Shown: piece after piece, positions 3,124 to 48,958 of the stretch
How the letters are laid out: each line of letters opens with the position of its first letter
Position numbering within the stretch: position 1 is the first letter of the stretch
DNA from: an uncultured Bacilli bacterium
GTDB lineage: Bacteria; Bacillota_I; Bacilli_A; RF39; UBA660
DNA: 64,000 nt
Assembly: GCA_947629655.1 (NCBI GenBank)
Contig: CANREL010000004.1
Coordinates: 13,577 to 77,576, forward strand
Reading direction: 5' to 3'
The notes under the pieces: generated by a model
The model's database searches: none
What the model was told of the DNA's origin: nothing
What the model saw: only the letters and a program-made list of their open reading frames with translations
Made by a program: the position numbers and the translations under genes

Positions 3124-3196
3124 ATATGGTCAAAGATATGTAAAATACATATCTTTTTTTTAGTTTCCTTGTTATAATTGGGTTATGGTGATGCAT

Positions 3197-4219
3197 ATGG
3201 ATAGCATATATAATAAAACTTATGATGAACTGATTAAGTATTTTGAGTCCATTGGTGAAAAAAAGTTTAAAGCGACACAAGTATTTGAATGGTTGTATTT
3301 AAAAAGAGTAAAATCATTTGATGAGATGAGCAATATAAAAAAAGATATCATCGATGAGTTAAAAAAAGAGTTTGTCATAAAAAATATAAATCTCGATAAA
3401 GTTGAAAGAGACGTTGAAGTTAATAAATATTTATTCACGTTAAGTGATGGTAATCACATCGAATCAGTTTTGATGCGTCATGATTATGGCACTAGTATTT
3501 GTATATCTAGTCAAGTTGGATGCAATATGGGATGTCATTTTTGTGAGAGTGGTAGATTGAAAAAAGTTCGCGATTTAACAGCGGGCGAGATGGTCGAACA
3601 GATATTGAAAGTTGAAGAAGACATAAAGATACGCATCACGCACGTCGTCATCATGGGAATAGGTGAACCATTTGATAATTTTGATAATTTTAAAAGGTTT
3701 GTCGAGATAATTAATTATCAAAAAGGAATCAATATTGGAAGTCGTCACATCACTGTTTCTACTAGTGGAATCATTCCTAAAATAAAAGAATTTGAACAAT
3801 TTCCTTATCAAGTAAATTTAGCGATTAGTCTTCATGCTCCAAATGATAAAATTCGTAATGAACTGATGCCTATCAATAAAGTTTATCCGATTAAAGACTT
3901 GATAAAAGAATTAAAAAATTACATAAAAATTACTAATAGAAGAGTGACATTCGAATATATTTTGTTAGATGGAATCAATGACACAGAGATGTGTGCTAAT
4001 GAATTGTGCAATCTAGTTGAAGGAATGAATTGTTATATCAATTTAATTCCATATAATGAAACTAATAATTTGGGCTATAAAAGGAGCAAAAAAGATACTA
4101 TTTCTAAATTTTATGATATAATAAAAAAGAGAAAAATAAATGTTACGATCAGAAGAGAATTTGGAACTAATATAAGTGCTGCTTGTGGACAACTTAGAAG
4201 TAAGAAGGAGGATTTATGA
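3197..4219 (+). CDS. rlmN: 23S rRNA / tRNA (adenine-C2)-methyltransferase RlmN (radical SAM).
   Basis: Radical-SAM cluster motif CNMGCHFCESG and the RlmN/Cfr signature C-terminal Cys (AACGQL) are present. Position upstream of prpC-prkC-rsgA-rpe matches the Bacillus yloN operon. The start could instead be the ATG at 3185. Confidence 0.9.
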   Translation: MDSIYNKTYDELIKYFESIGEKKFKATQVFEWLYLKRVKSFDEMSNIKKDIIDELKKEFVIKNINLDKVERDVEVNKYLFTLSDGNHIESVLMRHDYGTSICISSQVGCNMGCHFCESGRLKKVRDLTAGEMVEQILKVEEDIKIRITHVVIMGIGEPFDNFDNFKRFVEIINYQKGINIGSRHITVSTSGIIPKIKEFEQFPYQVNLAISLHAPNDKIRNELMPINKVYPIKDLIKELKNYIKITNRRVTFEYILLDGINDTEMCANELCNLVEGMNCYINLIPYNETNNLGYKRSKKDTISKFYDIIKKRKINVTIRREFGTNISAACGQLRSKKEDL

Positions 4220-15112: not shown

Positions 15113-15784
15113 ATGATAAAAGATATACCAATTGCTGAAAGACCACGTGAGCGAGCATTGGATTTAGGAGTAGAAAATTTATCAAATAGTGAATTGTTGT
15201 CAATAATATTGCGAACTGGTACTAATAATAAAAGTGTAAAAGATTTATCTTTAGAAATAATTGATCTAGTTGGTGATATTTCTAATTTTAAGTCCTTAAC
15301 TTTGAACAAATTATTGACAATTAGAGGAATAGGTAGAGTTAAAGCGATTGAATTGATCAGTGTAATTGAGTTTTCTAAAAGAATATATTTAGGTAATAAC
15401 AAGAGTCACATAAAAATAAGTTCAGTTAATGATGTCGTTAATAATTATAAAAACTTATTTTTTAACGTCAAACAAGAGATGTTTTATTGCCTTTATTTAA
15501 ATAATAAAAATGTGGTAATTGAAAGGAAATTGTTATTTATGGGAACTATTAATCGAAGTGTAGTACATCCACGTGAAATATTTAAAAACGCTTATCTATG
15601 CAGTGCTTCGGGAATCATTTGTATGCACAATCATCCAAGTGGTGATATCACTCCTTCAATTGAAGATAAAAGACTTACGAAAACTTTAGTCGATATTGGT
15701 AAAATTCAAAATATTCCCATTCTTGATCACGTCATAATTGGGGAAGATAATTATTTCAGTTTTATGGAGAGTGGTCTATTATGA
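15113..15784 (+). CDS. radC: RadC-family (UPF0758) JAB-domain protein.
   Basis: HNHPSGD JAMM motif and an N-terminal HhH region. Located upstream of mreC as in Bacillus. Confidence 0.85.
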   Translation: MIKDIPIAERPRERALDLGVENLSNSELLSIILRTGTNNKSVKDLSLEIIDLVGDISNFKSLTLNKLLTIRGIGRVKAIELISVIEFSKRIYLGNNKSHIKISSVNDVVNNYKNLFFNVKQEMFYCLYLNNKNVVIERKLLFMGTINRSVVHPREIFKNAYLCSASGIICMHNHPSGDITPSIEDKRLTKTLVDIGKIQNIPILDHVIIGEDNYFSFMESGLL

Positions 15785-17007: not shown

Positions 17008-17592
17008 ATGGACTATACCGATAGTAAATTTTTAAAAGAAAAAGATCGAGTTAAGAAGAGTGGATTCAAATCTTTCTTTAATAAGATTTTGTTTTGTATC
17101 TTAATATTTTTGATCGCTTTAATAGTTGTTAAAGGTAATCCCAACATAAAAGAAAAATTATATAGTTATATATATGAAAATAATATATCTTTTTCTAAAT
17201 TACATGATTTGTATGATAAATATTTAGGAGGAATTGTTCCTTTTGATAATGTCTTAGTAGATGATACAGTAGCTGTTTTTAAAGAAAATTTGGAGTATGA
17301 AGAGAAAAAAGATTACAATTCAGGAGTTAAATTAGTAGTGGATAACAATTATTTAGTTCCTGTCATTGAAAGTGGTATTGTCGTCTACATTGGCGATAAA
17401 GAAGGTTATGGGAATACAGTTATCATCCAACAAGTGGATGGAGTAGATGCTTGGTATAGTAATGTCGATACTAATATATCTCTATATGATTACGTAGAAA
17501 AAGGATCACTTTTAGGTAATACTAAAGATAATAATTTATATCTATATTTTCAAAAAGATGGAAAATTTATCGATTATAAAGAGTATATCTAA
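17008..17592 (+). CDS. Membrane-anchored M23/LytM-domain protein, SpoIVFA-like.
   Basis: N-terminal TM; C-terminal VVYIGDKEGYGNTVIIQQVDGVDAWYSNVD resembles a degenerate LytM domain. Gene order after mreCD and before an S2P protease mirrors spoIVFA in Bacillus subtilis. Confidence 0.5.
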   Translation: MDYTDSKFLKEKDRVKKSGFKSFFNKILFCILIFLIALIVVKGNPNIKEKLYSYIYENNISFSKLHDLYDKYLGGIVPFDNVLVDDTVAVFKENLEYEEKKDYNSGVKLVVDNNYLVPVIESGIVVYIGDKEGYGNTVIIQQVDGVDAWYSNVDTNISLYDYVEKGSLLGNTKDNNLYLYFQKDGKFIDYKEYI

Positions 17593-18322
17593 AAAGATTT
17601 ATATTGATTCTTTTTTCTATTTTTTTATTTTGATTTCTTGCCTTACAGCTAATTTTAAAAATTTTTTATTATTTTTTTCCATTATTTTAATCCATGAGAT
17701 GGGTCATTTGATAGTTGGGGTACTTTTGGGATGGAATGTTGATAAAATATGTCTATATCCCTATGGTGGCATGACGCGGTTCAGTGAAGATATAAATAGA
17801 AAAATAAGTGAAGAATTATTAATTTTAATCAGTGGTCCACTAGTTCAAAGCATTTATTTTTTTATTGGTAATGAGTTATTTAAGAGTGCTAGTTTCAATT
17901 ACTATAACATAGCAATCTTATCATTTAATTTACTACCCATATATCCTTTGGATGGTGGTAGAATTCTAAATCTTTTGTTCAATTATTTTTGGTCGTTTAG
18001 AACTAGTTATCACTTATCGATGATAATATCTTTTGGCGTGGCTTTTTTACTACTTTGGATATCTTTAGTAAACGGTTATACTCTTAACATTATTCTAATG
18101 TTTTTAATCGTCATCTCTAAACTTGTAAAAGAGTTTAAAAAGAGGAGATACTATTTCAACAAATTTATTTTAGAGAGATATATGAACAATTATAATTTTT
18201 CAAAGTTAAAAATAATTTCATCAATAAAAAAGATGATGCGCGACTATCGTCACATCATCAAAAATAATGATACTTATTACACCGAAAAAGAATATTTAAA
18301 CAAATTATATCGAAGTAAATGA
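17558..18322 (+). CDS. spoIVFB: Site-2 protease (M50), SpoIVFB-like pro-sigma-K processing protease.
   Basis: HEMGHL zinc motif in a TM helix, and a second LDGG motif (NLLPIYPLDGGRIL). Confidence 0.7.
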   Translation: MENLSIIKSISKKIYIDSFFYFFILISCLTANFKNFLLFFSIILIHEMGHLIVGVLLGWNVDKICLYPYGGMTRFSEDINRKISEELLILISGPLVQSIYFFIGNELFKSASFNYYNIAILSFNLLPIYPLDGGRILNLLFNYFWSFRTSYHLSMIISFGVAFLLLWISLVNGYTLNIILMFLIVISKLVKEFKKRRYYFNKFILERYMNNYNFSKLKIISSIKKMMRDYRHIIKNNDTYYTEKEYLNKLYRSK

Positions 18323-20564: not shown

Positions 20565-22130
20565 ATGTCTAAGTTTAAAAAAGTTTTTTATACAATTATT
20601 TTTGTCATATCATTGTTTCTATTAATTGGGAAAGTATATGTTGATAATATTAAACCTTTGAAACATGTCGCTATCGATGTTAATGATGAAATAACGACTG
20701 ATATATTTTTTAAACATAAATTGGGGAAAATTAATTTCGTTACAGATGTTGAAAAGATTGATACTAGTAAACTTGGAAAATATGAAGTGATAATAGAAGT
20801 CAATAGTCATAGATTTAAAACGGAATTGGAAGTAGTTGACGTAGATGCTCCTATCGTCAAAGTGAAGAATTTAAAACTCGGTTATTATGAAGATATAAGT
20901 GCAGATATGTTTGTTGAAAAAATAGAAGATGCAACTGAGTGTAGCGTTTCTTTTGAAAAAGAAATTGTTAAGAAAGTTGGAAAACAGAAAGTTGTAATTG
21001 TCGTTGTTGATGAAGCTCATAATAAAACGAAAAAAGAAGTAGAATTGGAATTAGTAAAAGTTAAAGAAGAATTGACGCTCGAAGCAGGTAGTACTTTTGA
21101 GTTAGATAGTGTTTTGTATGGTGCTGATAAGATTGAAGATAAGAAAATAATTCAAAATATTGATACTAAAAAGTTGGGTGTTCAAGATTTGAAATTGATT
21201 GTTGATGGTGATGAATACACAGTCAAAGTTACAGTTGAAGATACTAAAGCACCCGTTGTAACTATCAATAATCCAACTATTTGGTGGGATGCTAAAGGTA
21301 TTACAGTTGATAAATTTATTAAAAAAGTTACGGATGCAACGACAGTAAAAAAAGAATTGTTAACTAAAATAGATTATTCGAAAATTGGAAAACAAGATGT
21401 TAAAATTCGCGTTACTGATGAATCAGGAAACGTAACTGAAGTGACCGCTAAACTAACTATAAAAAAAGATACGACTGGTCCAACAATTCGCAATATGACA
21501 ACGATTAGTGTCGTTAGAGGAAATAGTATCAATTACATGAGTGGTGTTAGTGCCTATGATGATCACGATGGAAAAGTTAGTGTCACATATGATGCTAGTA
21601 AAGTTAATACCGGTAGTCCAGGTAGTTATACAGTGACTTATACAGCTAAAGATTCTAGTGGTAATAAAACGACTAAAAATAGAACGATTAAAATAACAGG
21701 AAATGCGACTGATGTCAAAAATAAACTTCAACCGATTGTCAGTGGTTTGAAAGCTGGAAGTCGTGCTCAAACAGCTCTTAACATTCGAAATTGGGTGGCT
21801 AAAAATATCAGTTATAAGACGAGTAATTTAAAAAGTCTATATCCTTCAGCTTGGGAAGGTATTACAACGCGTAAAGGTGATTGTTATACACATATGGCTC
21901 TTACGAAAATAATGCTTGATTTAGCAGGTATTCCTAATCAGATAATTCATACATGGACAGGTGGTCACTATTGGAATTTAATCCAACTTGAAAATAGTAG
22001 TTGGTGTCATGTCGATTCAACACCGGGAGCTAAGGTTACCGATTTAAGAGATGATGCCAGTTATGAAAAGGTAGTAAAGAAAAAAGGTTGGGATCACTCT
22101 AGCTGGCCAAAAGCAGAGTGTATTAGATAG
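20565..22130 (+). CDS. Membrane-anchored surface protein with Ig-like (DUF5011-type) repeats and a C-terminal transglutaminase-like cysteine-protease domain.
   Basis: N-terminal TM; repeats carry the D.DAP.V / TKAPVVTINNP motif. C-terminal GDCYTHMAL...HTWTGGHYWN...HVDSTP gives the Cys-His-Asp triad. Confidence 0.7.
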   Translation: MSKFKKVFYTIIFVISLFLLIGKVYVDNIKPLKHVAIDVNDEITTDIFFKHKLGKINFVTDVEKIDTSKLGKYEVIIEVNSHRFKTELEVVDVDAPIVKVKNLKLGYYEDISADMFVEKIEDATECSVSFEKEIVKKVGKQKVVIVVVDEAHNKTKKEVELELVKVKEELTLEAGSTFELDSVLYGADKIEDKKIIQNIDTKKLGVQDLKLIVDGDEYTVKVTVEDTKAPVVTINNPTIWWDAKGITVDKFIKKVTDATTVKKELLTKIDYSKIGKQDVKIRVTDESGNVTEVTAKLTIKKDTTGPTIRNMTTISVVRGNSINYMSGVSAYDDHDGKVSVTYDASKVNTGSPGSYTVTYTAKDSSGNKTTKNRTIKITGNATDVKNKLQPIVSGLKAGSRAQTALNIRNWVAKNISYKTSNLKSLYPSAWEGITTRKGDCYTHMALTKIMLDLAGIPNQIIHTWTGGHYWNLIQLENSSWCHVDSTPGAKVTDLRDDASYEKVVKKKGWDHSSWPKAECIR

Positions 22131-22138
22131 GTGTCTTT

Positions 22139-23623
22139 ATGAGTTTGTTATCATTGACATTTGTTTGGTTTTGTCTATTTACTATATTGGCATATTTTAT
22201 CGTACGTAAAAAAATTCAATGGCTCATATTATTGATATCAAGTTGGATTTTTTTATTATACGATGACTTTACGATTGGGACCTTATTACAGGTTTTAATC
22301 GTATTATTTTCAAGTTATGGATTAGGAATTTTAATAAATAAACATAGAAGTAAAGCTAAAATCTTTTTAATACTTGGAATATTGATAATCATTGGACAAT
22401 TGTTCTATTTAAAATATACTAATCTCTTCATTGAGACATTGAATTACTTATTTGATTTAAAAATAGGTTTGGTCAATCGCCATTCCGTAATTGGTATTAG
22501 TTATTATTCTTTGATGATGATCGGTTACTTAGTCGATGTCTATCGTTGAGCGGTTAGAAGTGAAAAGAATATTTTAAAATTATCGTTATTCATGTCTTAT
22601 TTTCCCATTTTGACTAGTGGTCCAATCATCAAATATGAAAATATGAAAAAAGAGTTGTATCATGGACATCGCTTTCGTTTATGCAATTTGACTAATGGCT
22701 TACTAAGAGTGTTATGGGGATTATTTAAGATATTAGTAATATCTCAAAGAGCTCAAATATTTGTCGATTTTGTCTATCGCGATTTCATGAATTTTAGTGG
22801 TTTATACATCTTCTTCGCAGCATTATTATTCGTCGTTCAACTATATACGAATTTCTCGGGTTCAATCGATATCATAATGGGTGTTTCAGAAATATTAGGC
22901 ATCAAGTTACCGGAGAACTTTAAAGCACCTTTCTTTGCAACGACGATTACAGAATTTTGGCGCAATTGGCACATAACCCTAGGAGCATGGTTAAAAGATT
23001 ACATCTTCTATCCACTTTTGAAGAGTAATTTCATGCAGTCTTTGAATAAGAAATGTAAAAATATTTTTGGAAAAAAGATTAGTAAGAAAATACCACTATA
23101 TTTATCAATGTTAATCATGTGGACATTAATTGGAATATGGCATGGTGGTGCATATACTTACATAATAGGGTCAGGTTTACTTCAATTTATCTTCATCTTT
23201 TTAGAAGATGTTTTAGAACCAGTTAGTAACAAGATAAATAAGAAGTTAGGAATAAATACTGATACTTTTAGTTATCGTTTGTATCAGCGAATTAGGACCT
23301 TTTTACTATTCTCTTTTTCAATGATTTTCTTTAGAGCAGTGACCGTAAATGAGGCTTTGAGCATACTTCAAAACATGTTTGTTTGGACGTCGCTTACTGA
23401 TATTGGTGAAATCATGTCAATAGCTAACTTCATAGTGATGTTTTTAGGAATTGGGGCATTGTTAGTAGTTGAATATCTAATGAGTAGAAATATTGTCTCT
23501 TTGAAATTTAAAAATCGTCATCGCGATTATCTCTTTTTGATAATATTCATATTTGTAATTATACTATTTGGAATATATGGAGTCGGTTTTGATAAAGCAG
23601 ATTTCATTTATAATAGGTTTTAG
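22139..23623 (+). pseudogene. MBOAT-family membrane O-acyltransferase (DltB/AlgI-like) interrupted by a single in-frame TGA.
   Basis: The 136-aa and 343-aa ORFs are in the same frame, separated only by the TGA at 22547-22549. MBOAT motifs continue across the stop (VDVYR*...FFPILTSGPII), and the conserved His is present (WRNWHITLGAW). Confidence 0.55.
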
Positions 23624-23631
23624 GTGGTAAT

Positions 23632-24681
23632 ATGAAAAAGTTTATTATGTATTTTATATTATTCATGATTTTATTTTTAGGATTTCAAAGACTAGTTCAA
23701 CCCAAATATGATGAAGATTTAGTCGAAGGATCAATGACGAGTGAATATTATGATTCTTCTAAAAATCATCAAATAATCTTTTTAGGTGATTGTGAAGTTT
23801 ATTCTAGTTACTCACCAATCGTCTTGTTCAATGAATTTGGATATACTTCTTACATAAGAGGAAATTCTCAACAGATGATTTATCAATCTTATCATTTGTT
23901 ACGTGAGACTTTACAGTATGAAATACCTAAAATAGTAGTTTTTAATGTCAATGCGCTTCGTCATGGGGAATTGGATAAAAATGAAGGGTATAATCGTTTA
24001 ATGATTGATGAAATGCGAAACTCTAAAATTAAATATGACTTAATTAATGATTCACTTACGAAAAATGAGACTATCTTTGATTACGTCTTTCCCATTTTTA
24101 GATATCACAGTCGTATTTTTGAATTGACGAAAGAAGACTTTGAATACTTTTTTAAAGATAAAACAATTACACATAATGGATATTTGATGCGCGTTGATGT
24201 CAAACCTGTTACGACGATGTACGAAGGCCTTTCTTTAGCTAATTATGACTTTTCTAAAGAAAATATGGAATACTTGGATAAGATTAGAGAATTGTGTGAA
24301 AAAAATGATATTGAATTGATTCTTGTCAAAGCACCATCTACTTATCCTTACTGGTATCCAGAATATGATGAACAAGTTGTTGAGTACTCACAAAAATATG
24401 GTTTGGAATATATAAATTTTTTGGATTTAAGAGATGAAATAGGTATTGATTACAATACGGATACATATGATGCAGGTCTACATTTGAACTTGAGTGGTGC
24501 AGAAAAGTTGACGAGGTATTTTGGTAATTATTTACAACACAATCACAATTTAGATGACATGCGTAACGATGAAGAAATAAGTCGTGAATACCATGATAAA
24601 AGTGAATATTATGTGAAAATACAAAAAGAGCAATTCAAAGAATTAAAAAAGTATGGTAAGATAGTAATGTATGGAGGATAG
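23632..24681 (+). CDS. DltD/AlgJ-like membrane-anchored accessory protein that partners the MBOAT.
   Basis: N-terminal TM; 349 aa. It follows the MBOAT gene as in the DltB-DltD, PatA-PatB and AlgI-AlgJ pairs. Confidence 0.5.
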   Translation: MKKFIMYFILFMILFLGFQRLVQPKYDEDLVEGSMTSEYYDSSKNHQIIFLGDCEVYSSYSPIVLFNEFGYTSYIRGNSQQMIYQSYHLLRETLQYEIPKIVVFNVNALRHGELDKNEGYNRLMIDEMRNSKIKYDLINDSLTKNETIFDYVFPIFRYHSRIFELTKEDFEYFFKDKTITHNGYLMRVDVKPVTTMYEGLSLANYDFSKENMEYLDKIRELCEKNDIELILVKAPSTYPYWYPEYDEQVVEYSQKYGLEYINFLDLRDEIGIDYNTDTYDAGLHLNLSGAEKLTRYFGNYLQHNHNLDDMRNDEEISREYHDKSEYYVKIQKEQFKELKKYGKIVMYGG

Positions 24682-24687
24682 AAGAGT

Positions 24688-25206
24688 ATGAAAAAAGTTT
24701 TGGTGTTGATGCTTGGTATATTATTACTTACGGGATGTGGCGCTAGTAACGCTGATGAAAATAAGGCAAAGGCTAGAGAAACAGATCGAGTTGGTTATTC
24801 TGTAACACTTAATGGTGTAGAAATGATGGTCGGTGATGAGTTTTCTAAAGTTTCTTCAAAGTTGGGTAAAGATTATCAATATCAAGAAGTAGAGACTTGT
24901 GCTTTTGAAGGAATGGATAAAATTTATACTTATCCTGATTATGAAATTTATAATTATCATGAAGATGGTGTTGAGAAAATCTATACGATTACGCTATCAA
25001 CAGAAAATGTTGCGACTGATGAAGGTATAAGAGTTGGTGATAATATTTCTGACGTCATTTCTAAATATGGTGATGATTATGAAGATGTAGCAGGTGCTTA
25101 TACATATACAAAAGGAGATACGTTGTTGACTTTTATCTTTGATGAAGAGGCAGTTACTAGTATCGAATACAAAATTCAATTAGAAGGTGTTGAAGAAGGA
25201 GAGTAG
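24688..25206 (+). CDS. Lipoprotein of unknown function.
   Basis: Lipobox LLLTGCGAS, 172 aa. Confidence 0.55.
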   Translation: MKKVLVLMLGILLLTGCGASNADENKAKARETDRVGYSVTLNGVEMMVGDEFSKVSSKLGKDYQYQEVETCAFEGMDKIYTYPDYEIYNYHEDGVEKIYTITLSTENVATDEGIRVGDNISDVISKYGDDYEDVAGAYTYTKGDTLLTFIFDEEAVTSIEYKIQLEGVEEGE

Positions 25207-25219
25207 TCCTTCTTTTTTT
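25195..25219 (+). terminator. Intrinsic terminator.
   Basis: GAAGGA-gagtag-TCCTTC hairpin followed by T7. Confidence 0.6.
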
Positions 25220-25277: not shown

Positions 25278-25976
25278 ATGCTTTTTAAAATATTAGAGCT
25301 TTTTAGAAGTTTTTTCATGTTTACAGGGAGTTATTCAAATAATGTCTTCTATGATCCACTTTCTAAAGAAGAAGAAGAAAAATATATCAAATTGTTAGAG
25401 ATGGGTGATAAGGAAGCGAGAAATAAACTCATTGAGCACAATCTCAGATTAGTTGCACACATCGTAAAAAAGTTTGATAGTAAGAATGTCGATCAAGATG
25501 ATTTAATAAGTATAGGGACTATTGGTCTAATAAAAGGTGTGGATTCCTATTCTTTAAAACATGGAACGAAGATAACGACTTATTGTGCTCGGTGTATTGA
25601 AAATGAAATACTTATGTATTTTCGAAGTAATAATAAAAATGAAAAAAATATATCTTTAAATGAACCAATAGGGTTTGATAAAGAGGGAAATGAAATAACA
25701 GTCATGGATGTTTTAAAATTACCCAGTCCTGATTTTATAGAAGATATTCAAACTAAGGACAATATAAAATTATTAAAAAAATATATTAATGTTTTAAATT
25801 CTCGGGAAAAGGAAATAATAGTTAAGAGATATGGACTTGATAACAATGTGGAACAAACGCAAAAAGCCATAGCTAAAGAATTAAAAATTTCTCGAAGTTA
25901 TGTCTCAAGAATTGAAAAGAGAGCGCTAACTAAAATTTTTAGAGAATTTATTAAAGATAATAATACGAAACCATAG
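25278..25976 (+). CDS. sigK: Pro-sigma-K, the late mother-cell sporulation sigma factor, uninterrupted.
   Basis: Near-identical blocks to B. subtilis SigK: LIEHNLRLVAHIVKKF, DLISIGTIGLIK, TYCARCIENEILM and ISRSYVSRIEKRAL. A ~20-aa N-terminal pro-sequence is present. Confidence 0.85.
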   Translation: MLFKILELFRSFFMFTGSYSNNVFYDPLSKEEEEKYIKLLEMGDKEARNKLIEHNLRLVAHIVKKFDSKNVDQDDLISIGTIGLIKGVDSYSLKHGTKITTYCARCIENEILMYFRSNNKNEKNISLNEPIGFDKEGNEITVMDVLKLPSPDFIEDIQTKDNIKLLKKYINVLNSREKEIIVKRYGLDNNVEQTQKAIAKELKISRSYVSRIEKRALTKIFREFIKDNNTKP

Positions 25977-40038: not shown

Positions 40039-40069
40039 TATATTGATAATAATAGGAAGGGTTGATTTG

Positions 40070-40426
40070 ATGAAAAATAAGCAAAGTGGTCAAGCATTAA
40101 TAGAATTTGTCATTATTTTACCAGTTGTGATCTTGCTTATTTTTTCTTTTGTAGATTTGGGTAGAATTGTTTTAGAAAATAATAGATTAGAGAATTTAAC
40201 TACGAGTGTTATTGAAAAATATAATGAGACTAAAAAATATGATGATGTCATTTCTTATATCGATTCATTAGGATATGAAAAAGTTGATTTATCTATTTCT
40301 GCACATGATGATATGTTGACGATTAAACTCACTGAAAAAATTGACTTAGTTACGCCAGGACTTTCAAAAATCATGGGTGATCCTTATAAAGTTGAAGTAG
40401 AGAGAGTTGTTAAATATGAAAAATGA
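40070..40426 (+). CDS. TadE-like pseudopilin.
   Basis: N-terminus SGQALIEFVIILPVVILLIFSFVDLGR matches the TadE-like domain (G/xxxxEF). Confidence 0.65.
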   Translation: MKNKQSGQALIEFVIILPVVILLIFSFVDLGRIVLENNRLENLTTSVIEKYNETKKYDDVISYIDSLGYEKVDLSISAHDDMLTIKLTEKIDLVTPGLSKIMGDPYKVEVERVVKYEK

Positions 40427-41192
40427 AAAAGGTCAAGTATTAGTTCTTTTCATAATGATTTTACCACTTCTATTATTAGGAGGAGCGTGTATCGTTGATT
40501 CTTCTTATATGTTATATCAAAAAAATCGTTTAGATAATATAAATCGTGATGTTTTGAATAGTGTCAATAATAGTTCTTCTTTGAGTGAAGAAGTAATTGA
40601 TGAAATAATTAGAGAAAATGATGCGAAAATTGTCAATGATGAGATATCGATTGATGAGAAAATTGTGATTAAAAATCATGTGATGGTCGATAGCCTATTT
40701 GGAAAGATAATAGGTATTGATAAATATAGAGTCAATTCAGAAGTCAGTGTAAAAGCTAAGAGATTGATATTAGATATCGATAGTTTAAAGAATATTGATA
40801 ATACTGGTAATTATTCAGTTATCAATAATAATGTCATTTATGATGGAGGATTAGTTTTTAAAGATTCTGATTTGGTGATTAATAATTTTAATATGAATGG
40901 TGACTTTGAGATAAATATTTCTTTTTCATTTGAAAAAAATGGTAATTTATTAGAATTCAATAATCTTTTGATAAATATTAGTAATGATGAATTATTCATA
41001 AATGGAAAAAGAGTTACTAGTTTAAAAATTGGTGAAAAATATGATTTAGTCATAACTAAAGATCGAGTTGTATTAAATGGTGATAGTTCAGTATCTTCTA
41101 ATGATATTGACAATTATTCTGGTGATTTGATCATTGGTAAGGGATTCAGTGGAAAAATAGAATTCATAAAAATATATAATATTGGAAATTAG
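40416..41192 (+). CDS. TadE/TadG-like pilus-assembly protein.
   Basis: N-terminus EKGQVLVLFIMILPLLLLGGACIVD matches a TadE-like N-terminal helix. The ATG at 40416 overlaps the upstream stop. Confidence 0.55.
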   Translation: MKNEKGQVLVLFIMILPLLLLGGACIVDSSYMLYQKNRLDNINRDVLNSVNNSSSLSEEVIDEIIRENDAKIVNDEISIDEKIVIKNHVMVDSLFGKIIGIDKYRVNSEVSVKAKRLILDIDSLKNIDNTGNYSVINNNVIYDGGLVFKDSDLVINNFNMNGDFEINISFSFEKNGNLLEFNNLLINISNDELFINGKRVTSLKIGEKYDLVITKDRVVLNGDSSVSSNDIDNYSGDLIIGKGFSGKIEFIKIYNIGN

Positions 41193-41200
41193 GTGAAAAT

Positions 41201-41974
41201 ATGGAAAGTAAAAAAGGTAAAATTCTTACGATTACATCAATGAAGGGTGGAGTTGGAAAAACGATGGTGACGATGCTTCTAGCTAATGTTTTTTCGAAAT
41301 GTGGTAAAAAAGTATTAGTTGTCGATTTGGATTTATACAATGGTAATTTAGCTTTTGCTTATAAAACTAGAGTAAAAAGTTCTATCTATAATTTGTGTGA
41401 TGACATAGCTAATAATCGTTTAGTCAATGGAATAACATCTGAATACGTTTCAAAGATAAGTGATAATTTATACTTTATCGCGGCACCTAAGGATCCACGT
41501 CAAGCTAATAAGATTGATAATAAATATCTCGATAGCATTTTGAAATCATTATCTTTTTTATACGATGTCATTTTAATCGATACTAATCATATATTAAGTG
41601 TTTCTAACATGGTCGCTTTTGAAAACAGTTATAAGATTGTTGACCTTGTCACCAATGACAGCTTTGATTTACAGAGTACGAAGAGTTTTGTGGCCATCTG
41701 TAAGAACATGGGTGTTGACAATTTAGTTTTGATGTTAAATAACGCCATTGATTCACGAAGAGGTTACTATACGACTTATGACATGAAAAATATTACGAAG
41801 AAGAATATTGATTATACAATTCCAAGCGCTTTCTATTTAAAGAATTTTGATCAGTTGGTAATGGATGGTAAGATTGGTTTCTTTGATGAATATTTAAAGG
41901 GTGAAGCTAAAAAGAGTTTGGAAGATTTTGCTGGTCACATGTTAAGTCTCATTGATGATGGAGGTAAGGAATAA
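41201..41974 (+). CDS. CpaE/TadZ-like ParA/MinD-family ATPase.
   Basis: Deviant Walker A SMKGGVGKT. Positioned between the tadE-like and cpaF genes. Confidence 0.7.
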   Translation: MESKKGKILTITSMKGGVGKTMVTMLLANVFSKCGKKVLVVDLDLYNGNLAFAYKTRVKSSIYNLCDDIANNRLVNGITSEYVSKISDNLYFIAAPKDPRQANKIDNKYLDSILKSLSFLYDVILIDTNHILSVSNMVAFENSYKIVDLVTNDSFDLQSTKSFVAICKNMGVDNLVLMLNNAIDSRRGYYTTYDMKNITKKNIDYTIPSAFYLKNFDQLVMDGKIGFFDEYLKGEAKKSLEDFAGHMLSLIDDGGKE

Positions 41975-43359
41975 TGAAGAAATCTAGTTGGTTAGAAGAA
42001 TTTGATGTAGTTGATCTATCTCCTAAAGTTGATACTCATGAATCTGATTATGAAGTGTTTGAAGATAAGAAGTTACTCGACAATTTTAGAAATAGTATCA
42101 TTCAGGAATTGATCGATAGTAATATAAGTGATAATAGTAATTTATCACAATACATAAATGAAGAAATAGACCGCATTACTGATGGATATGATTTGAGTGG
42201 TCAAGAGAGAAATTATCTTTTGAATTTGATTGAAAATGAAGTTAATGGTTATGGACCAATTACGGAGCTTTTGGATGATAAAAACGTTACAGAAATAATG
42301 ATAAATGGTCCAGATGAAATATATATTGAAGTCGATGGTGTTCTATCACGTGATAAAAGTGTTTCTTTTATCAATGCTGATCACATCATTCGAACTGTTC
42401 AAAGAATAATTCAACCCCTTGGTAGAACGATAGATTCCGCAAGTCCGATGGTCGATTCGCGACTTCCTGACGGTTCAAGAATTAATGCGATCATTCCACC
42501 ATTGTCTGTCAAAGGACCAGTGGTGACAATTCGTAAATTTAAAGATGATATCGACAATATCGATTCTCTAATTGGTAATGGAACACTAACACCTTATATG
42601 GCTAGATTTTTAGATGCCTGTGTCGATGCACGATTAAATATTTTGGTCTGTGGTGGTACTGGTAGTGGTAAGACGACACTTCTAAACGTCTTATCAAACT
42701 TTATCGGTAATGAAGAGAGAATAATCACGATTGAGGATGCTGTCGAATTGCGATTAAAACAAGATCATGTCATTTCACTTGAGACTAAAAGTACTAACTA
42801 TGATCAAGAAGGCGAAGTGACAATTCGTGATTTGGTCAGAAACTCATTACGTATGCGACCTGACCGCATAATTGTTGGTGAAGTTCGTGGTAAAGAAGCA
42901 TTTGATATGCTTCAAGCGATGAATACTGGTCATGATGGAAGTTTGACTACGTTGCATGCCAATGGTTGTAGAGACGCTTTAAATAGACTTGAAACGATGA
43001 TTTTAATGGGTGAGTTGGAACTTCCTATCAAAGCTATCCGCGGTTATATAGAAAGCGCAATTGATATCGTCATATCAGTTGAAAGATTGAGTGATGGTAA
43101 GAGAAAAGTTACATCAATATCAGAAATTGTCGGTTTTGATGGGGAAAACATTCAATTAAAAGAAATATTTGGTTTTATTAAACATGGATTGACGGAAAGT
43201 AAAGAGGTAAATGGAGAATTCATCCTATACGATTACGTTCCAGAAGTTTATGAAAAGATTAAGAGTCGTGGTATTAATACCATTGATGACATGTTTGTAA
43301 AAGAGGAAAAAAAGAAAAAAAGTTCAGTTAAAAAAACAACAAAAAAGACTAAAAAGTAG
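41974..43359 (+). CDS. tadA: CpaF/TadA secretion ATPase (type II/IV secretion NTPase).
   Basis: Walker A GGTGSGKTTLLN, Asp box, Walker B IIVGEVRG, His box TTLHANG. 461 aa. Confidence 0.9.
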   Translation: MKKSSWLEEFDVVDLSPKVDTHESDYEVFEDKKLLDNFRNSIIQELIDSNISDNSNLSQYINEEIDRITDGYDLSGQERNYLLNLIENEVNGYGPITELLDDKNVTEIMINGPDEIYIEVDGVLSRDKSVSFINADHIIRTVQRIIQPLGRTIDSASPMVDSRLPDGSRINAIIPPLSVKGPVVTIRKFKDDIDNIDSLIGNGTLTPYMARFLDACVDARLNILVCGGTGSGKTTLLNVLSNFIGNEERIITIEDAVELRLKQDHVISLETKSTNYDQEGEVTIRDLVRNSLRMRPDRIIVGEVRGKEAFDMLQAMNTGHDGSLTTLHANGCRDALNRLETMILMGELELPIKAIRGYIESAIDIVISVERLSDGKRKVTSISEIVGFDGENIQLKEIFGFIKHGLTESKEVNGEFILYDYVPEVYEKIKSRGINTIDDMFVKEEKKKKSSVKKTTKKTKK

Positions 43360-43370
43360 GAAGTGATAAA

Positions 43371-44387
43371 ATGGATACAGCACTTGATATAATCATTTTT
43401 ATAATTCAAGTGATAACAGGATTTGTACTGTTGTACATCGCTTATCGTCTATTCAGATTTTATCGAACAGTAGGGTTTGATAAGCGCTTTGGACCTTATT
43501 CTGTCGAATTGTTAGAAGATGATAGTGAATCGTTTTTTGACATGGTCAGTTATTATTATGACAAAGTACAAAATTATCTTTCAAAGTCTTTGATAAAAAT
43601 AAAAATATTTGATAGTTATAGTAAAAAATATGAAAAGTATAGTTATGGAAAAAGAGTTAATGCGATAGATGATATGAATTATATATCGAAAAAGATATTC
43701 ATTGGTTTACTATGTGTATTTCTACTATTATTCTCTTGTATTTTTAGATATGTACACGTAAGTTTACTATCGATTTTATTAGCTTTCTTAGTAGGTTTTT
43801 TTGCTCTTGATGTCTATTTGATAATTTATGATAGAATGCGAAAAAACAGTATTGAAAAAGATATTAATAAAGCGGTCATCATCATGAATAATGCCTTTAA
43901 ATCAGGTTATAGTATCATGCAGGCAATATACCTTGTCCATACACAAATGGATGGGGCGATAAGTGAAGAATTTAGAAAGATGTACATCGATATTACTTTT
44001 GGGTTGAACATGGAAGTAGTCTTTAATCGTTTCGCTGATCGCGTTGATTGTGTTGAAGCTCGCTACATGGCTACATCTTTAGGTGTTGTCAATAGGACTG
44101 GTGGAAATATCATTCAAGTTTTTGATGCCGTTGAAAGAAATGCTACGACGAGGCAACGATTGAAAGAAGAACTTAGCAGTGTTTCAGCATCGGCTCGTGC
44201 TATGTTTAAGATTTTGGTATGCATTCCAATATTCATAATTGGTATTCTATTGATTTTAAATCCTACTTATTTTGCACCACTATTCAAAACACCAATAGGT
44301 ATTTTGTGTTTGTTATTGAGTGTGATCATATATGTTTTATACATCATCATCATTAGAAAAATTATATATGTGGAGGTTGATTTATGA
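43371..44387 (+). CDS. tadB: TadB-like (T2SS-F family) inner-membrane platform protein.
   Basis: 338 aa with three or four TM helices and a T2SF-like cytoplasmic domain. Follows cpaF. Confidence 0.7.
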   Translation: MDTALDIIIFIIQVITGFVLLYIAYRLFRFYRTVGFDKRFGPYSVELLEDDSESFFDMVSYYYDKVQNYLSKSLIKIKIFDSYSKKYEKYSYGKRVNAIDDMNYISKKIFIGLLCVFLLLFSCIFRYVHVSLLSILLAFLVGFFALDVYLIIYDRMRKNSIEKDINKAVIIMNNAFKSGYSIMQAIYLVHTQMDGAISEEFRKMYIDITFGLNMEVVFNRFADRVDCVEARYMATSLGVVNRTGGNIIQVFDAVERNATTRQRLKEELSSVSASARAMFKILVCIPIFIIGILLILNPTYFAPLFKTPIGILCLLLSVIIYVLYIIIIRKIIYVEVDL

Positions 44388-45097
44388 AAAAGGTAAAGAA
44401 TAAGAAAAGAACTCTTTCACGTAGTATTTTTTCTAAGAGACAAATCGATAGAATTCAAAGAAAAATCGATTTATTAGGTGAAAATAGTAAATTTGATGCG
44501 ATTTTCTTCTTAAATTTGCGCTTTATTTCTTCCATAGTTCTATTTTTAGTGGTATTATATGTATTTGAGTTGGGGTACTTCTTAGCACCACTAATCACGT
44601 TTATTTACTATTATTTAATTTACTATCTTTTAATTGAATACAATATAAATAAGAGATGTGATAAATTAGATGTTGAAGCGATGTATTTTTTTGAAGTTAT
44701 GACTTTGGCATTAGAATCTGGTAATAATTTAAAAAATGCTTTAGATATGACTTGTAGTAATGTGGACAATGAATTGTCTAGAGAATTTCGTAAAGCTCTT
44801 GATGAAGTTGATTACGGAAAGAGTTTGAATGAAGCTTTAGAGAGTTTGAAGCTTAGAATACCTTCGGATACAATTAACAATATTATTTTGAATATCATGC
44901 AATCTAATATTTTTGGTAATAATATAACTAATGATATGTACAATCAATTGGATTACATTAGAGATAGAGAAATTCAAAAAGCTAAGAGTAGAATTAGTAA
45001 AATACCTCTATACGTATCAGTCATTTCAGTCGTATTTTATGTACCTTTGATAATGTTGTTGATTTTATCACCAGTTATAATAGAATTTTTAAGTTAG
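44384..45097 (+). CDS. tadC: TadC-like (T2SS-F family) inner-membrane platform protein.
   Basis: 237 aa with TM helices. Start overlaps the tadB stop (ATGA). Confidence 0.65.
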   Translation: MKKVKNKKRTLSRSIFSKRQIDRIQRKIDLLGENSKFDAIFFLNLRFISSIVLFLVVLYVFELGYFLAPLITFIYYYLIYYLLIEYNINKRCDKLDVEAMYFFEVMTLALESGNNLKNALDMTCSNVDNELSREFRKALDEVDYGKSLNEALESLKLRIPSDTINNIILNIMQSNIFGNNITNDMYNQLDYIRDREIQKAKSRISKIPLYVSVISVVFYVPLIMLLILSPVIIEFLS

Positions 45098-45877: not shown

Positions 45878-48800
45878 ATGAGCTATATAAAATCTTTTGA
45901 TGAAGAAGAATTTGAATCTTTAAAAGAGTATTGTCAAAAATATAGTTCTCAATATGGACTCAGTGCTCATGTCATGGAGTTATTAGATGAGAATGGACTT
46001 TATTATTTGAATAAATTTGTCAATGATGATGAAGATTTTGATGAACGTGATTTTGATACTTTAATAAGAGCTTTCTTTGATGGTTTTGATTTTTATTATG
46101 ATCGTTTAGATGATAATTATTTATTAGCGGCTAAAGAAAAATTAGAAGAGACTTTTTCATTCTTTGAAGATAGTCATTTAGATGATGAACACAAAAGTGA
46201 AATTGTCGATAATTTTTTTGAAATACTATCGAGTTATACGCGTGAAGAGTTGAGTGATAGTAAAGCTTTATACTATTTATTGACTTCTGATGTTTTTAGA
46301 AGGAGCAACATGGTTAAAGAATATTTGTACAATTCTTATAATTCGGTTGCTACTAGTAAAGAAAAGTTGGTCTTTTTTGTCAAAAATCTATATGATTTAT
46401 TGAACAAATTACCATATGAAGATGCTCACAAAGTCGATTATATATTTTTGAGTAGTTCTGATGCCTTCACTTATTTTTTAGATGTACCTGAAGAGATGAA
46501 TATCTTTTTTAATGAGAGAATTTTATCAAAATTTGGAAAAGAGACCTTGAGCTTTCTATTCAGAATGTCAGATTATTCTGTCTTCAGCAGTTTTTGTAGA
46601 TCTGATGATAAGTTTTTGTCTGTCGTAGCAGCTATGAATGAATACGTATTAAAAAAATATAATAAAAATTCTTATTTCTTTGATGGAGTTTTTAAATTTT
46701 TTAACAGATTTGAGAAAAAAGATATTAGAGCTAGAAAAATAATCATTGATCTATTCTCTGAATATTATGACAAATATTTTGAAGAAAGTAAAAAGAATGG
46801 TTTTGAAAACGATGAGATTTTTAATAATTTATTGGGATTAATTCTGCAACATCGTGATGTAATATATTTTTTGAATGAAAAAAATATTGAAAATTTAGAT
46901 GATTTCTTTAAAGCGACGAGAGAGAAAATAGATGAATTACACACGACTATATTTGGTAAGGAAGGTTTGGTCAAGTTTAAATATGGTGTCTTTGATCCAA
47001 AAAAAGATTTTCCACCTTTTGAGATGCGAGTACAGGGACTACACGATTTGAAAAATGCTTTCTTGCAAAGAGTTTATGGAATAACTTATGAAGATGCCTT
47101 TTATATCGCGTCAAAATATGGAACTTTTATCGAGCTATGTCAAGATGAAATAGCGGATGAAGATCGTGATGTTTATGAGATAGTTAAGACGATAACCGAT
47201 GTCGCTAATATGATTGATTACAATGGTAATAAAATAAATAATATTAGATTAGCTGCCCATGAATTTATTAAGAATAAGGGACTTTATAATTATAATAATG
47301 GGTCTTGTTATCCGATTCTATTATCATTGATTAATCGCATGTACATGCATGCATATAATGATTGTGTCTTTAAAGTTGATGAAAATTCTAAAGTTTTATA
47401 TCGTCAAAGAAAAGTTCCTGTAATTGATGCAGGAGTTAATTTCAACATGATTGTAAGTTCTATCAATGCTGTTGATGAGTTTTATACCAGTCGTGATAAC
47501 ATGATGGAGAAGTACAACATATCGAGTCGTTCCAATAATCAAGGAATTTGTGCAAGTTTTATCAATAATGAAAGTTTAGGAGTCATATCTTTACGCCAAC
47601 CATTAATTGGGTATGCCAATTTAGCTGATGACAGTTTGGATGCGATGGGAGTTGGTGATATATATTCCAAAACGATTGATTTAGATTTGTTGAGAGCTAA
47701 TTCTACAACTGGTGAGGGAAATTATTTCTTCACTCCTAAAAAATATATCGATTATACAAGATTTGGATATAACGAAATGGTCGTTGATCGCTTTTTGGTC
47801 AAAGATGATGACGATGCGATAAAAGTTCAACCGAGTTACATAGTTGTCTATAAAATAGATGACAATTATAAAAAGACTAGAATGTATAAAAAAGGAATAA
47901 GAATGGCTAGAGATTTTGGTGTTCCACTAGTCTTAGTTGACGTTCCAAAAGTTAAAGAAAATGAACGTGATATCATTCTTCAAAAAGAAAAAGAATTATT
48001 CAAAAGTAGTAAAGTCGATAAGGAATTATTAAATGAAATAGTAACGCGTTATATGAATAATTACAGTGGATCTTTAACGATTATGCGAAGTCGAAATCGC
48101 CGTGGAAATGAATGGCACTATCCAAAGGATTTCTCTGTGCGTGGTTTGACGAGATTTTTAGATAAAGTGGCTCGAAAGTTTGAAGATTTTGATGAAGCAC
48201 AAATAGAAGAGTGGAGTCAAGCTTTGAACGAAGTTTATAATTTAGAAAAAGAAAAGAACAAAATGGCTTTACAAATAAATGATTATGAGGATTCATTGAG
48301 TGGTGGAGAATTTTTACTCGATGATAAGATCATGTTTTCAGAATTTGTTCAAAATATCAAAGATCGCAATATCAATCGTCTTCTTCTCAGAAAGGGCATG
48401 TTTGATCAAGATAAATATTTACACATACCAGATGTCAAAGTACCAAGTGATGTCCAATTGATTGTCGATTTAGCAAACTTATTGTGTAAGAGTAAAGTTT
48501 ATGCCAATGTCAGTGGTCACAATGGGGAAAATATTTATCAGACGAAGAAGACTTATGATTATAGTGAAGAAGAAAAAAATGCTTATGGTCTCGTAATTTC
48601 TTATTTACTTGGGGACTATAGTACTAATTATTTTGCTAATCTCGATACTTGTGATATTACAAATATCAAAATTGATGAAAATATCCAACGCGTTGAGAGG
48701 TGCCTAGATGGCAATGATGCTTTTTCTAATCAGAATATCGATACAGAATTGTTATTAAAAGTTGCTACAGATATTGAAGATCTACCAACGGCAATCTTTT

Positions 48801-48958
48801 CTAAAGTGTTTAGACCATTCATTCAAGATTACAGTGCAAAGATGGGCGTTGCTCCAGATAAAGTACGCGATAATTTTCTTCGTAAGAAAGAACACATTTT
48901 TAGTGAGATGTCTAAATTTGCCCGTTCTGATAGAATTAATAAAGCAATTAGTAAATAA
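45878..48958 (+). CDS. Giant cytoplasmic protein, paralog A (1026 aa), of an unrecognised family: ~480-aa helical N-terminal domain, ~300-aa conserved core, and a variable C-terminal extension.
   Basis: Good RBS AAGGGTGGTGA, no signal peptide. Shares colinear motifs with the 53730 and 57111 ORFs: LLNRMYM, IDAGV.FNMIV, QG[IL]C[AV]S, R[FY]GYNE[MI]..[DE]RFL, QPSY[IV]V.YK, [DE]FG[VI]P[LM]V[LV]VD and RYMNN.SG. Confidence 0.7.
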   Translation: MSYIKSFDEEEFESLKEYCQKYSSQYGLSAHVMELLDENGLYYLNKFVNDDEDFDERDFDTLIRAFFDGFDFYYDRLDDNYLLAAKEKLEETFSFFEDSHLDDEHKSEIVDNFFEILSSYTREELSDSKALYYLLTSDVFRRSNMVKEYLYNSYNSVATSKEKLVFFVKNLYDLLNKLPYEDAHKVDYIFLSSSDAFTYFLDVPEEMNIFFNERILSKFGKETLSFLFRMSDYSVFSSFCRSDDKFLSVVAAMNEYVLKKYNKNSYFFDGVFKFFNRFEKKDIRARKIIIDLFSEYYDKYFEESKKNGFENDEIFNNLLGLILQHRDVIYFLNEKNIENLDDFFKATREKIDELHTTIFGKEGLVKFKYGVFDPKKDFPPFEMRVQGLHDLKNAFLQRVYGITYEDAFYIASKYGTFIELCQDEIADEDRDVYEIVKTITDVANMIDYNGNKINNIRLAAHEFIKNKGLYNYNNGSCYPILLSLINRMYMHAYNDCVFKVDENSKVLYRQRKVPVIDAGVNFNMIVSSINAVDEFYTSRDNMMEKYNISSRSNNQGICASFINNESLGVISLRQPLIGYANLADDSLDAMGVGDIYSKTIDLDLLRANSTTGEGNYFFTPKKYIDYTRFGYNEMVVDRFLVKDDDDAIKVQPSYIVVYKIDDNYKKTRMYKKGIRMARDFGVPLVLVDVPKVKENERDIILQKEKELFKSSKVDKELLNEIVTRYMNNYSGSLTIMRSRNRRGNEWHYPKDFSVRGLTRFLDKVARKFEDFDEAQIEEWSQALNEVYNLEKEKNKMALQINDYEDSLSGGEFLLDDKIMFSEFVQNIKDRNINRLLLRKGMFDQDKYLHIPDVKVPSDVQLIVDLANLLCKSKVYANVSGHNGENIYQTKKTYDYSEEEKNAYGLVISYLLGDYSTNYFANLDTCDITNIKIDENIQRVERCLDGNDAFSNQNIDTELLLKVATDIEDLPTAIFSKVFRPFIQDYSAKMGVAPDKVRDNFLRKKEHIFSEMSKFARSDRINKAISK

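Follow-up and report, generated by a model that had tools for sequence, protein, structure and literature searches.

Does an MBOAT acyltransferase gene that is interrupted by a single stop codon still encode an enzyme? We considered this question for a DltB-like MBOAT gene from an uncultured Bacilli bacterium. The gene lies within a stretch of 64,000 nucleotides (nt) from assembly GCA_947629655.1 (contig CANREL010000004.1, positions 13,577 to 77,576 of the forward strand). We refer to this whole stretch as the window, and positions below are counted from its first letter. An earlier interpretation that used the letters alone (the sequence-only reading) had noticed the stop codon and had offered three explanations: a nonsense mutation, which would make the gene a fresh pseudogene or a strain variant; a sequencing error; or a site of read-through or recoding. 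Our results favor the nonsense mutation over the other two. Quite probably, the gene is a recent loss-of-function allele of a DltB-like acyltransferase that depends on a carrier protein, and it sits in a locus that was rebuilt by recombination and lacks the genes for loading the donor.

The two open reading frames (ORFs) at 22139-22549 (136 amino acids) and 22592-23623 (343 amino acids) are in the identical frame and are parted by the TGA at 22547-22549. As the sequence-only reading had described, reading through 22139-23623 gives a single 494-codon product with one internal stop (IGYLVDVYR*AVRSEKNILKLSLFMSYFPILTSGPII). The similarity to MBOAT proteins also continues across the stop, as had been claimed: the TIGR04091 model for DltB aligns to residues 10-398 of the read-through product. 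The score is 117.4 bits, as compared to the equivalog cut-off of 375 bits. The closest intact relative, P0001, is also under this cut-off (136.8 bits). The part after the stop scores above the gathering threshold of the Pfam model for MBOAT (PF03062; 52 bits versus 27), and all but a few of the listed homologs carry this domain.

Two histidine motifs, WRNWH (His278) and IWHGG (His335), are invariant in this MBOAT family and align with His289 and His336 of DltB, which are active-site residues (PMC11035591). Both motifs are located 3' of the premature stop. The 5' fragment reaches the end of the helix that is equivalent to residues 127-143 of P0001, and its 136-residue product would consist of N-terminal helices and would have no catalytic activity, because both histidine motifs come after the stop. 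Members of the MBOAT superfamily are uninterrupted multi-pass polypeptides, and this frame has an in-frame TGA at codon 137. We therefore consider it to be a pseudogene of the MBOAT family and not a functional member.

To identify the ancestral codon, we searched for homologs of the read-through product. We found 2,216 matches and aligned the best 120, which are proteins of about 500-510 amino acids. All 120 cross the site of the stop. The aligned residue is glycine in 107 of these 120 best matches; the remainder have K, N, E, or D, and none has W, C, or U. The sequence-only reading had expected glycine or arginine at this site. Glycine is correct, but the arginine is the preceding residue. 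The flanking columns are strongly conserved in this alignment as well (Y-L-x-D-x-Y-R just before the site and, starting at the site, G ... K-N-I-x-K). P0001 is intact (503 amino acids) and is encoded by the same species, on the metagenome contig L001/L087. Its codon at this site is GGA, which is one of the codons that had been suggested for related strains, and therefore the change in the window is from G to T. When P0001 is compared to DltB from Streptococcus thermophilus (6bug; E = 4e-16), the glycine at the site aligns with a glycine of DltB.

If UGA encoded glycine (code 25) or tryptophan (code 4) in this bacterium, then the gene would not be interrupted at all. The ancestral glycine and the low GC content of the genome (30%) would fit such a code, but the use of stop codons in the window refutes it. 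Under code 11, the window has 52 long ORFs with little space between them. For 10 other genes with clear boundaries, the stop codon is TGA; rlmN (3185-4219) and radC (15113-15784), the examples given in the sequence-only reading, are among them, and several of the 10 show ATGA overlaps of start and stop. Also, the genes in the window encode tryptophan with 102 TGG codons, and there is no in-frame TGA in the 51 other long ORFs, so the MBOAT gene is the sole interrupted gene of the 52. Because of these observations, UGA is a stop codon in this genome, as had been claimed. Its genetic code is the standard one, which excludes both code 4 and code 25, and the chance of an alternative code is negligible. 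An error in sequencing or assembly, with GGA as the true codon and an intact gene, is highly improbable. A single base decides the matter, and the names of the related metagenome contigs indicate low coverage (about 2.3-2.9x). However, when we looked up the exact sequence of the 136-residue fragment, we found it on contigs from two other samples, L005 (ERZ27249610) and L006 (ERZ27249129), and L005 carries the 343-residue fragment as well. These contigs show 100% identity to the window across 4,240 nt and 2,363 nt, respectively, including the TGA. Because the TGA allele is identical, base for base, in two other assemblies, a one-off error in base calling or assembly is very unlikely. The stop is also outside of any homopolymer. 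The three assemblies with the TGA may well sample one clone, for instance from co-housed hosts. We did not find an intact copy of the window's N-terminal MBOAT variant among 5.8 billion protein clusters, and an exact-pattern scan of metagenome contigs from the Joint Genome Institute (JGI) found nothing either.

Could the cell bypass a genuine stop codon? The frame is open on both sides of the stop and is otherwise well conserved, and the partner gene is intact, as might be expected if UGA were decoded (as selenocysteine, tryptophan, or glycine) to give a functional full-length MBOAT, perhaps at a deliberately low level. But the 100 nt from the stop onward have a predicted folding energy of -11.1 kcal/mol (z = +0.82), and 159 of 200 shuffled sequences fold at least as well. 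Thus there is no fold resembling a selenocysteine insertion sequence (SECIS) 3' of the UGA, just as the sequence-only reading had anticipated. There is also no match to Rfam in 21900-23000 at E ≤ 1. The absence of cysteine, selenocysteine, and tryptophan from this column in the 120 homologs, the 10 other genes that end with TGA, and the absence of a stop at this site in any other family member all argue against recoding, which we consider very unlikely. We think it similarly implausible that the gene is functional but split, with the 136-residue piece and a re-initiated 343-residue piece forming an active MBOAT of two chains. In the AlphaFold model of P0001 (pLDDT 87.5), Gly144, the residue at the site, is directly after the helix at 127-143, so the stop is just past the end of a helix and in a loop, and an ATG is located 42 nt downstream. 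But this ATG, at 22592, has no Shine-Dalgarno pairing (+1.2 kcal/mol, versus a mean of -5.7 for 50 other starts and -7.1 for the partner gene). Restarting there would cost 14 conserved residues, including N151 and K154, which are nearly invariant in the family. As the 343-codon ORF lacks a ribosome binding site, little or no active enzyme is expected. Furthermore, no ortholog is split at the site, either among the 120 homologs or in 40 related loci that we identified by scanning one genome per species (their MBOAT proteins are 55-68% identical to P0001). The sequence-only reading had named orthologs that are naturally split at this point as evidence that would speak against its view. Six of the homologs are shorter (P0102, P0109, P0111, P0113, P0116, and P0117), and these either cross the site or are truncated elsewhere. 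The MBOAT gene is uninterrupted in 39 of the 40 related loci. The exception is L056 (2956-4495), from a rabbit-gut metagenome-assembled genome (MAG), in which the ortholog is frameshifted near codon 108-111. The frameshift could be an assembly error; otherwise, it inactivated a member of the family for a second time, independently of the TGA.

The nonsense mutation seems to have happened recently. Apart from the stop, the MBOAT pseudogene has no frameshift. Counting columns with a conservation of 95% or more, the window's sequence deviates at 3 of 51 in the N-terminal half and at 1 of 70 in the C-terminal half. The family's mean is 0.7 deviations per half (for the N-terminal half, the standard deviation is 1.1 and the maximum is 6). 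The small number of deviations and the lack of frameshifts point to recent inactivation, as would be expected for the fresh pseudogene or strain variant that had been proposed.

Comparison of the window to the intact haplotype showed that the MBOAT gene is a mosaic. The window's DNA is identical to L001 from 22838 to at least 27139. In the 5' 700 nt of the gene, before 22838, the two MBOAT alleles are just 45-75% identical in protein sequence, and the flanking regions are unrelated. In the window, the upstream genes are tdk (on the minus strand), murE, and a 521-residue surface protein with Ig-like and transglutaminase domains, followed by MBOAT. In the intact haplotype, which we found in L087 and in L088 (99.3% identical to each other), there are two hypothetical genes and a holo-ACP synthase (minus strand), then genes for FkbH (592 amino acids), an acyl carrier protein (ACP; 81 amino acids), and a VOC/glyoxalase-fold protein (126 amino acids), and then the intact MBOAT. 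Downstream, L001/L087 (ERZ27249358) and L088 (ERZ27060145) share with the window the genes for the partner protein (100% identical), a lipoprotein, a sigma factor, and a polysaccharide deacetylase.

We considered two simpler explanations for these differences. We rejected a chimeric misassembly, as each haplotype recurs in an independent assembly (the window and L005; L087 and L088). We also rejected a simple deletion of FkbH and ACP, as the 5' 700 nt of MBOAT is itself divergent and is not merely joined to a new flank. The N-terminal segment of the window's MBOAT shares about 60% identity with each member of the family and is not especially close to any of them.

A third allele, P0124, is on a 233-kb contig from NCBI. 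It matches P0001 exactly over about 400 residues, after which the identity falls to 28-50%. Within the species, MBOAT is a mosaic of three segments, and at the boundaries between them (22837/22838 and around 23339) the identity changes abruptly between about 50% and 100%. Position 23339 is the first codon at which P0124 diverges. Contigs L002 and L003, from two different samples, both begin at window position 23262, which is exactly 77 nt before 23339. This start point is what would be expected of an assembler with k = 77 if two 3' variants of MBOAT coexist in these samples.

The genes that precede MBOAT in the intact haplotype are also found in the relatives. Almost all of the 40 related loci are from rabbit-gut MAGs that are labelled as uncultured Bacilli or Clostridia. 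One relative bears the name Candidatus Onthocola (Bacilli incertae sedis). FkbH is present in 37 of the 40 (at 77-87% identity), ACP in 36, and the VOC protein in 19. In the three loci without FkbH, the available upstream sequence is merely 252-2,986 nt. The FkbH protein scores well above the cut-off of TIGR01686 (258.6 bits versus 146.65), and the ACP, which is a stand-alone protein encoded directly after FkbH, scores above Pfam's threshold for PP-binding. The VOC protein is weakly similar to methylmalonyl-CoA epimerase. The gene set is at 1323-5264 in L087, at 1623-5564 in L088, and around the MBOAT match in L007-L045 and L056, and a holo-ACP synthase gene adjoins it in L087 and L088. Because orthologs of the window's MBOAT adjoin FkbH and ACP both in the intact haplotype and in nearly all relatives (37 of 40), the family is most likely dependent on a carrier protein, as DltB is; gene neighborhoods are our basis for this prediction.

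In the window itself, we found neither FkbH nor ACP, whether by tblastn or by comparing the family hidden Markov models to six-frame ORFs of at least 40 amino acids (none at E ≤ 10). Pfam scans of all ORFs of at least 100 amino acids found no AMP-binding or PP-binding domain in the 64 kb either, which agrees with the sequence-only reading that dltA and dltC are missing. That reading took their absence to mean that the pair more likely O-acylates a glycan than D-alanylates teichoic acid, which would imply a donor that is not bound to a carrier. The related loci speak against such a donor, given that FkbH and ACP are beside MBOAT in the intact haplotype and in most relatives. Instead, the FkbH and ACP genes were lost from the window's haplotype or were never received by it, and their absence probably reflects how the locus decayed or was replaced.

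The gene set of FkbH, ACP, MBOAT, and an SGNH-fold protein is conserved in many uncultured gut Bacillota and apparently undescribed. We found no literature in the library that we searched that links FkbH with DltB, teichoic acid, or HAD-IIIC. Judging by the titles and abstracts in that library, FkbH and MBOAT appear together in just two papers, both on cyanobacterial peptide natural products.

The partner protein that is encoded just after MBOAT is intact (349 amino acids), as the sequence-only reading had stated. That reading also called it DltD/AlgJ-like. We found no match to models from Pfam or NCBIfam at normal thresholds, and no match to the Pfam models for DltD (PF04914), ALGX, or DHHW even at E ≤ 1. 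At that relaxed threshold, there was a weak match of Lipase_GDSL_2 to the C-terminal block (15.5 bits, versus a cut-off of 32.9). A profile search against the sequences in the Protein Data Bank (PDB) gave only chance-level matches. The partner's family is large (4,604 database matches), and NCBI labels it as SGNH/GDSL hydrolase. In the AlphaFold model (pLDDT 91.7), a helix at the N terminus (residues 2-22) precedes a domain with the three-layer alpha/beta/alpha fold of SGNH proteins. Foldseek matched the model to GDSL-like lipases (E = 2.6e-5), TesA, DltD (6pfx, E = 2.9e-4; 6o93), and PatB (7tlv). It is fair to say that "DltD-like" suits the partner's architecture and the position of its gene, but not its family membership.

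The putative active site also distinguishes the partner from typical SGNH proteins. These have a nucleophilic serine in block I (GDS) and an Asp and a His in block V, but the partner's block I reads GDCE. Its cysteine, Cys54 (23791-23793), is in the position of the serine nucleophile and is invariant in all 120 family sequences that we compared, and D280-x3-H284, which supplies the Asp/His pair, is invariant in the family as well. Cys54 is a candidate for the nucleophile.

This Cys-type partner and the 172-residue lipoprotein are also found beside a distant MBOAT (33-34% identity) in Lachnospiraceae (L048 and L051), and they occur with an FkbH-type MBOAT in L038. The closest FkbH-type loci have Ser-type partners instead, in which block I reads IGSSNAY. 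This is reminiscent of the GSSE motif of DltD. In the relatives, one to four paralogs of the partner are encoded in tandem 3' of MBOAT. Three to four tandem SGNH partners follow a single MBOAT in L009 (9543-12755), L032, and L045, which suggests that the partners differ in the acceptors that they recognize or that they have diversified.

How similar is this system to known ones? Among proteins with solved structures, DltB (6bug) is the best match to P0001 by sequence. By fold, DltB also ranks ahead of LPCAT3, PORCN, and HHAT (6bug_C, E = 3.3e-11; 8jem_A, TM-scores of 0.65 and 0.77; overall range 0.59-0.77), and both histidine motifs are conserved. The gene order in the relatives is like that of the dlt genes as well: MBOAT adjoins a gene that encodes a small carrier protein, and next comes the gene for the membrane-anchored SGNH-fold protein, in the place that dltD takes after dltB. 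However, the MBOAT proteins score just 117-137 bits against DltB's equivalog cut-off of 375 bits, and they are about 90 residues longer. Furthermore, the loader in the relatives is FkbH (of the HAD-IIIC type), not the adenylating DltA. And in contrast to DltXABCD systems, the window has an inactivated MBOAT gene and does not encode a carrier protein. As for the partner, it shares with DltD the N-terminal helix followed by an SGNH domain, the position of its gene directly after MBOAT, and fold matches, but its TM-score to DltD is about 0.35, and generic GDSL lipases score higher. Also, it lacks a match to Pfam's DltD model and has the invariant cysteine instead of serine.

Two other kinds of systems are worth comparing. 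In PatA/PatB and AlgI/AlgJ/AlgX, an MBOAT is likewise followed by an extracytoplasmic SGNH-fold transferase, and PatB is among the fold matches of the partner. These pairs are not known to be encoded with a dedicated carrier protein. In contrast, the relatives of this MBOAT have one, and the partner does not match ALGX or DHHW. The FkbH and stand-alone ACP of the relatives resemble the glyceryl-ACP modules that take part in methoxymalonyl-ACP and tetronate biosynthesis, but in gut Bacillota they are joined to an MBOAT and an SGNH protein instead of to a polyketide synthase, and they are absent from the window.

From these comparisons, we can sketch how the pathway might work in the intact relatives. 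FkbH would load an acyl group, presumably of the glyceryl type (derived from glycerate), onto the small ACP in the cytoplasm. MBOAT would take the group from the phosphopantetheine arm and move it to the outer face of the membrane. The membrane-anchored, extracellular SGNH-fold partner would then deliver it to a polymer of the cell envelope. In the window's haplotype, recombination with its breakpoint at 22837/22838 gave MBOAT a foreign 5' part and an upstream neighborhood without FkbH and ACP, and a change of G to T turned the conserved glycine codon GGA into TGA. Translation would now halt after 136 residues, ahead of both catalytic histidine motifs. With the foreign upstream region and the nonsense mutation, which arose in an order that we can only infer, the pathway would lack both its donor supply and its transferase, and the partner and lipoprotein genes remain intact.

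Some considerations weigh against our conclusion that the gene is a recently inactivated allele in a rebuilt locus. The recurrence of the TGA in three assemblies rules out an error, yet, as these may sample one clone, the TGA could be a transient variant. The undamaged partner and lipoprotein genes fit a very recent inactivation, but they fit continued function as well. FkbH and ACP might be encoded elsewhere in the genome, outside of the 64-kb window, and serve this locus from there. Lastly, low-level read-through of UGA reportedly occurs in Bacillus subtilis, so some full-length protein could be made. The product of UGA read-through would most likely have tryptophan at the glycine position.

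The window might contain a switched-off remnant of an undescribed Dlt-like pathway of gut Bacillota. We advance this idea tentatively. In this pathway, FkbH, instead of DltA, would load a dedicated ACP; the VOC/epimerase-like protein, which roughly half of the loci encode, may act on the acyl group once it is loaded; and a DltB-like MBOAT, together with interchangeable SGNH partners of the Ser or Cys type (up to four in tandem), would esterify a polymer of the envelope. The MBOAT gene would be a recombination hot spot with three exchangeable segments, of which the 5' one would move together with the donor genes and the 3' one together with the type of partner. If so, the TGA allele would represent an "off" state amid strain-level variation of the cell surface.

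As a pseudogene, this MBOAT gene is ordinary: given a single-base nonsense mutation, annotations should flag a pseudogene, and not two genes or a recoding site. The gene set of the intact relatives would follow the logic of teichoic acid D-alanylation a second time, but with different chemistry. Many bacterial MBOAT/SGNH systems have no known acyl donor, and an acyl-ACP made by FkbH is a testable candidate. The mosaic alleles within the species show that this locus for surface modification is being reshuffled and switched off at the level of strains.

Table 1. Features of the MBOAT locus, in window coordinates.
Feature	Position	Strand	Remarks
Ig-like/transglutaminase-core surface protein, 521 amino acids	20565..22130	+	Ends 8 nt before the MBOAT start; in place of FkbH, ACP, and VOC of the intact haplotype
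MBOAT pseudogene, 5' fragment	22139..22546	+	Codons 1-136 (ORF 22139-22549, 136 amino acids); N-terminal transmembrane helices; no catalytic residues
Premature stop TGA, from GGA (Gly)	22547..22549	+	Corresponds to Gly144 of P0001; aligned with Gly of DltB chain 6bug_C
MBOAT frame, 3' part	22550..23623	+	Codons 138-494 and TAG; WRNWH (His278) and IWHGG (His335); first possible restart is ATG 22592
Recombination breakpoint within MBOAT	22837..22838	.	Last mismatch to intact haplotype L001/L087 is 22837
Intact partner gene, 349 amino acids	23632..24681	+	N-terminal helix and SGNH-fold domain; family-invariant GDCE (Cys54) and D280-x3-H284
Lipoprotein gene, 172 amino acids	24688..25206	+	Accompanies this type of partner; also in L038 and L051
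Terminator-like hairpin	25192-25215		Follows the lipoprotein gene; probably ends the operon

Elsewhere in the window, a 924-residue protein (47-2821) has a YfhO domain fused to a C-terminal GtrA-like domain. YfhO is a family of membrane proteins of the glycosyltransferase type, and this gene adds a further function related to cell-envelope glycopolymers. The region at 40043-45097 encodes a set resembling Tad or type IV pili: a TadE-like protein, a ParA/CpaE-like ATPase, a T2SSE ATPase, and two T2SSF proteins. Three long ORFs at 45878-48958, 53730-57098, and 57111-60092 (1,026, 1,122, and 993 amino acids) have no match to Pfam at E ≤ 1e-5. Finally, the window encodes a sigma-70 family factor with an extension of about 50 residues before region 2 (25278-25976), as well as a 254-residue peptidase of the M50 family (Pfam Peptidase_M50; 17558-18322). 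By their resemblance to SigE/SigK and SpoIVFB, these two proteins hint at a sporulation program of that type.

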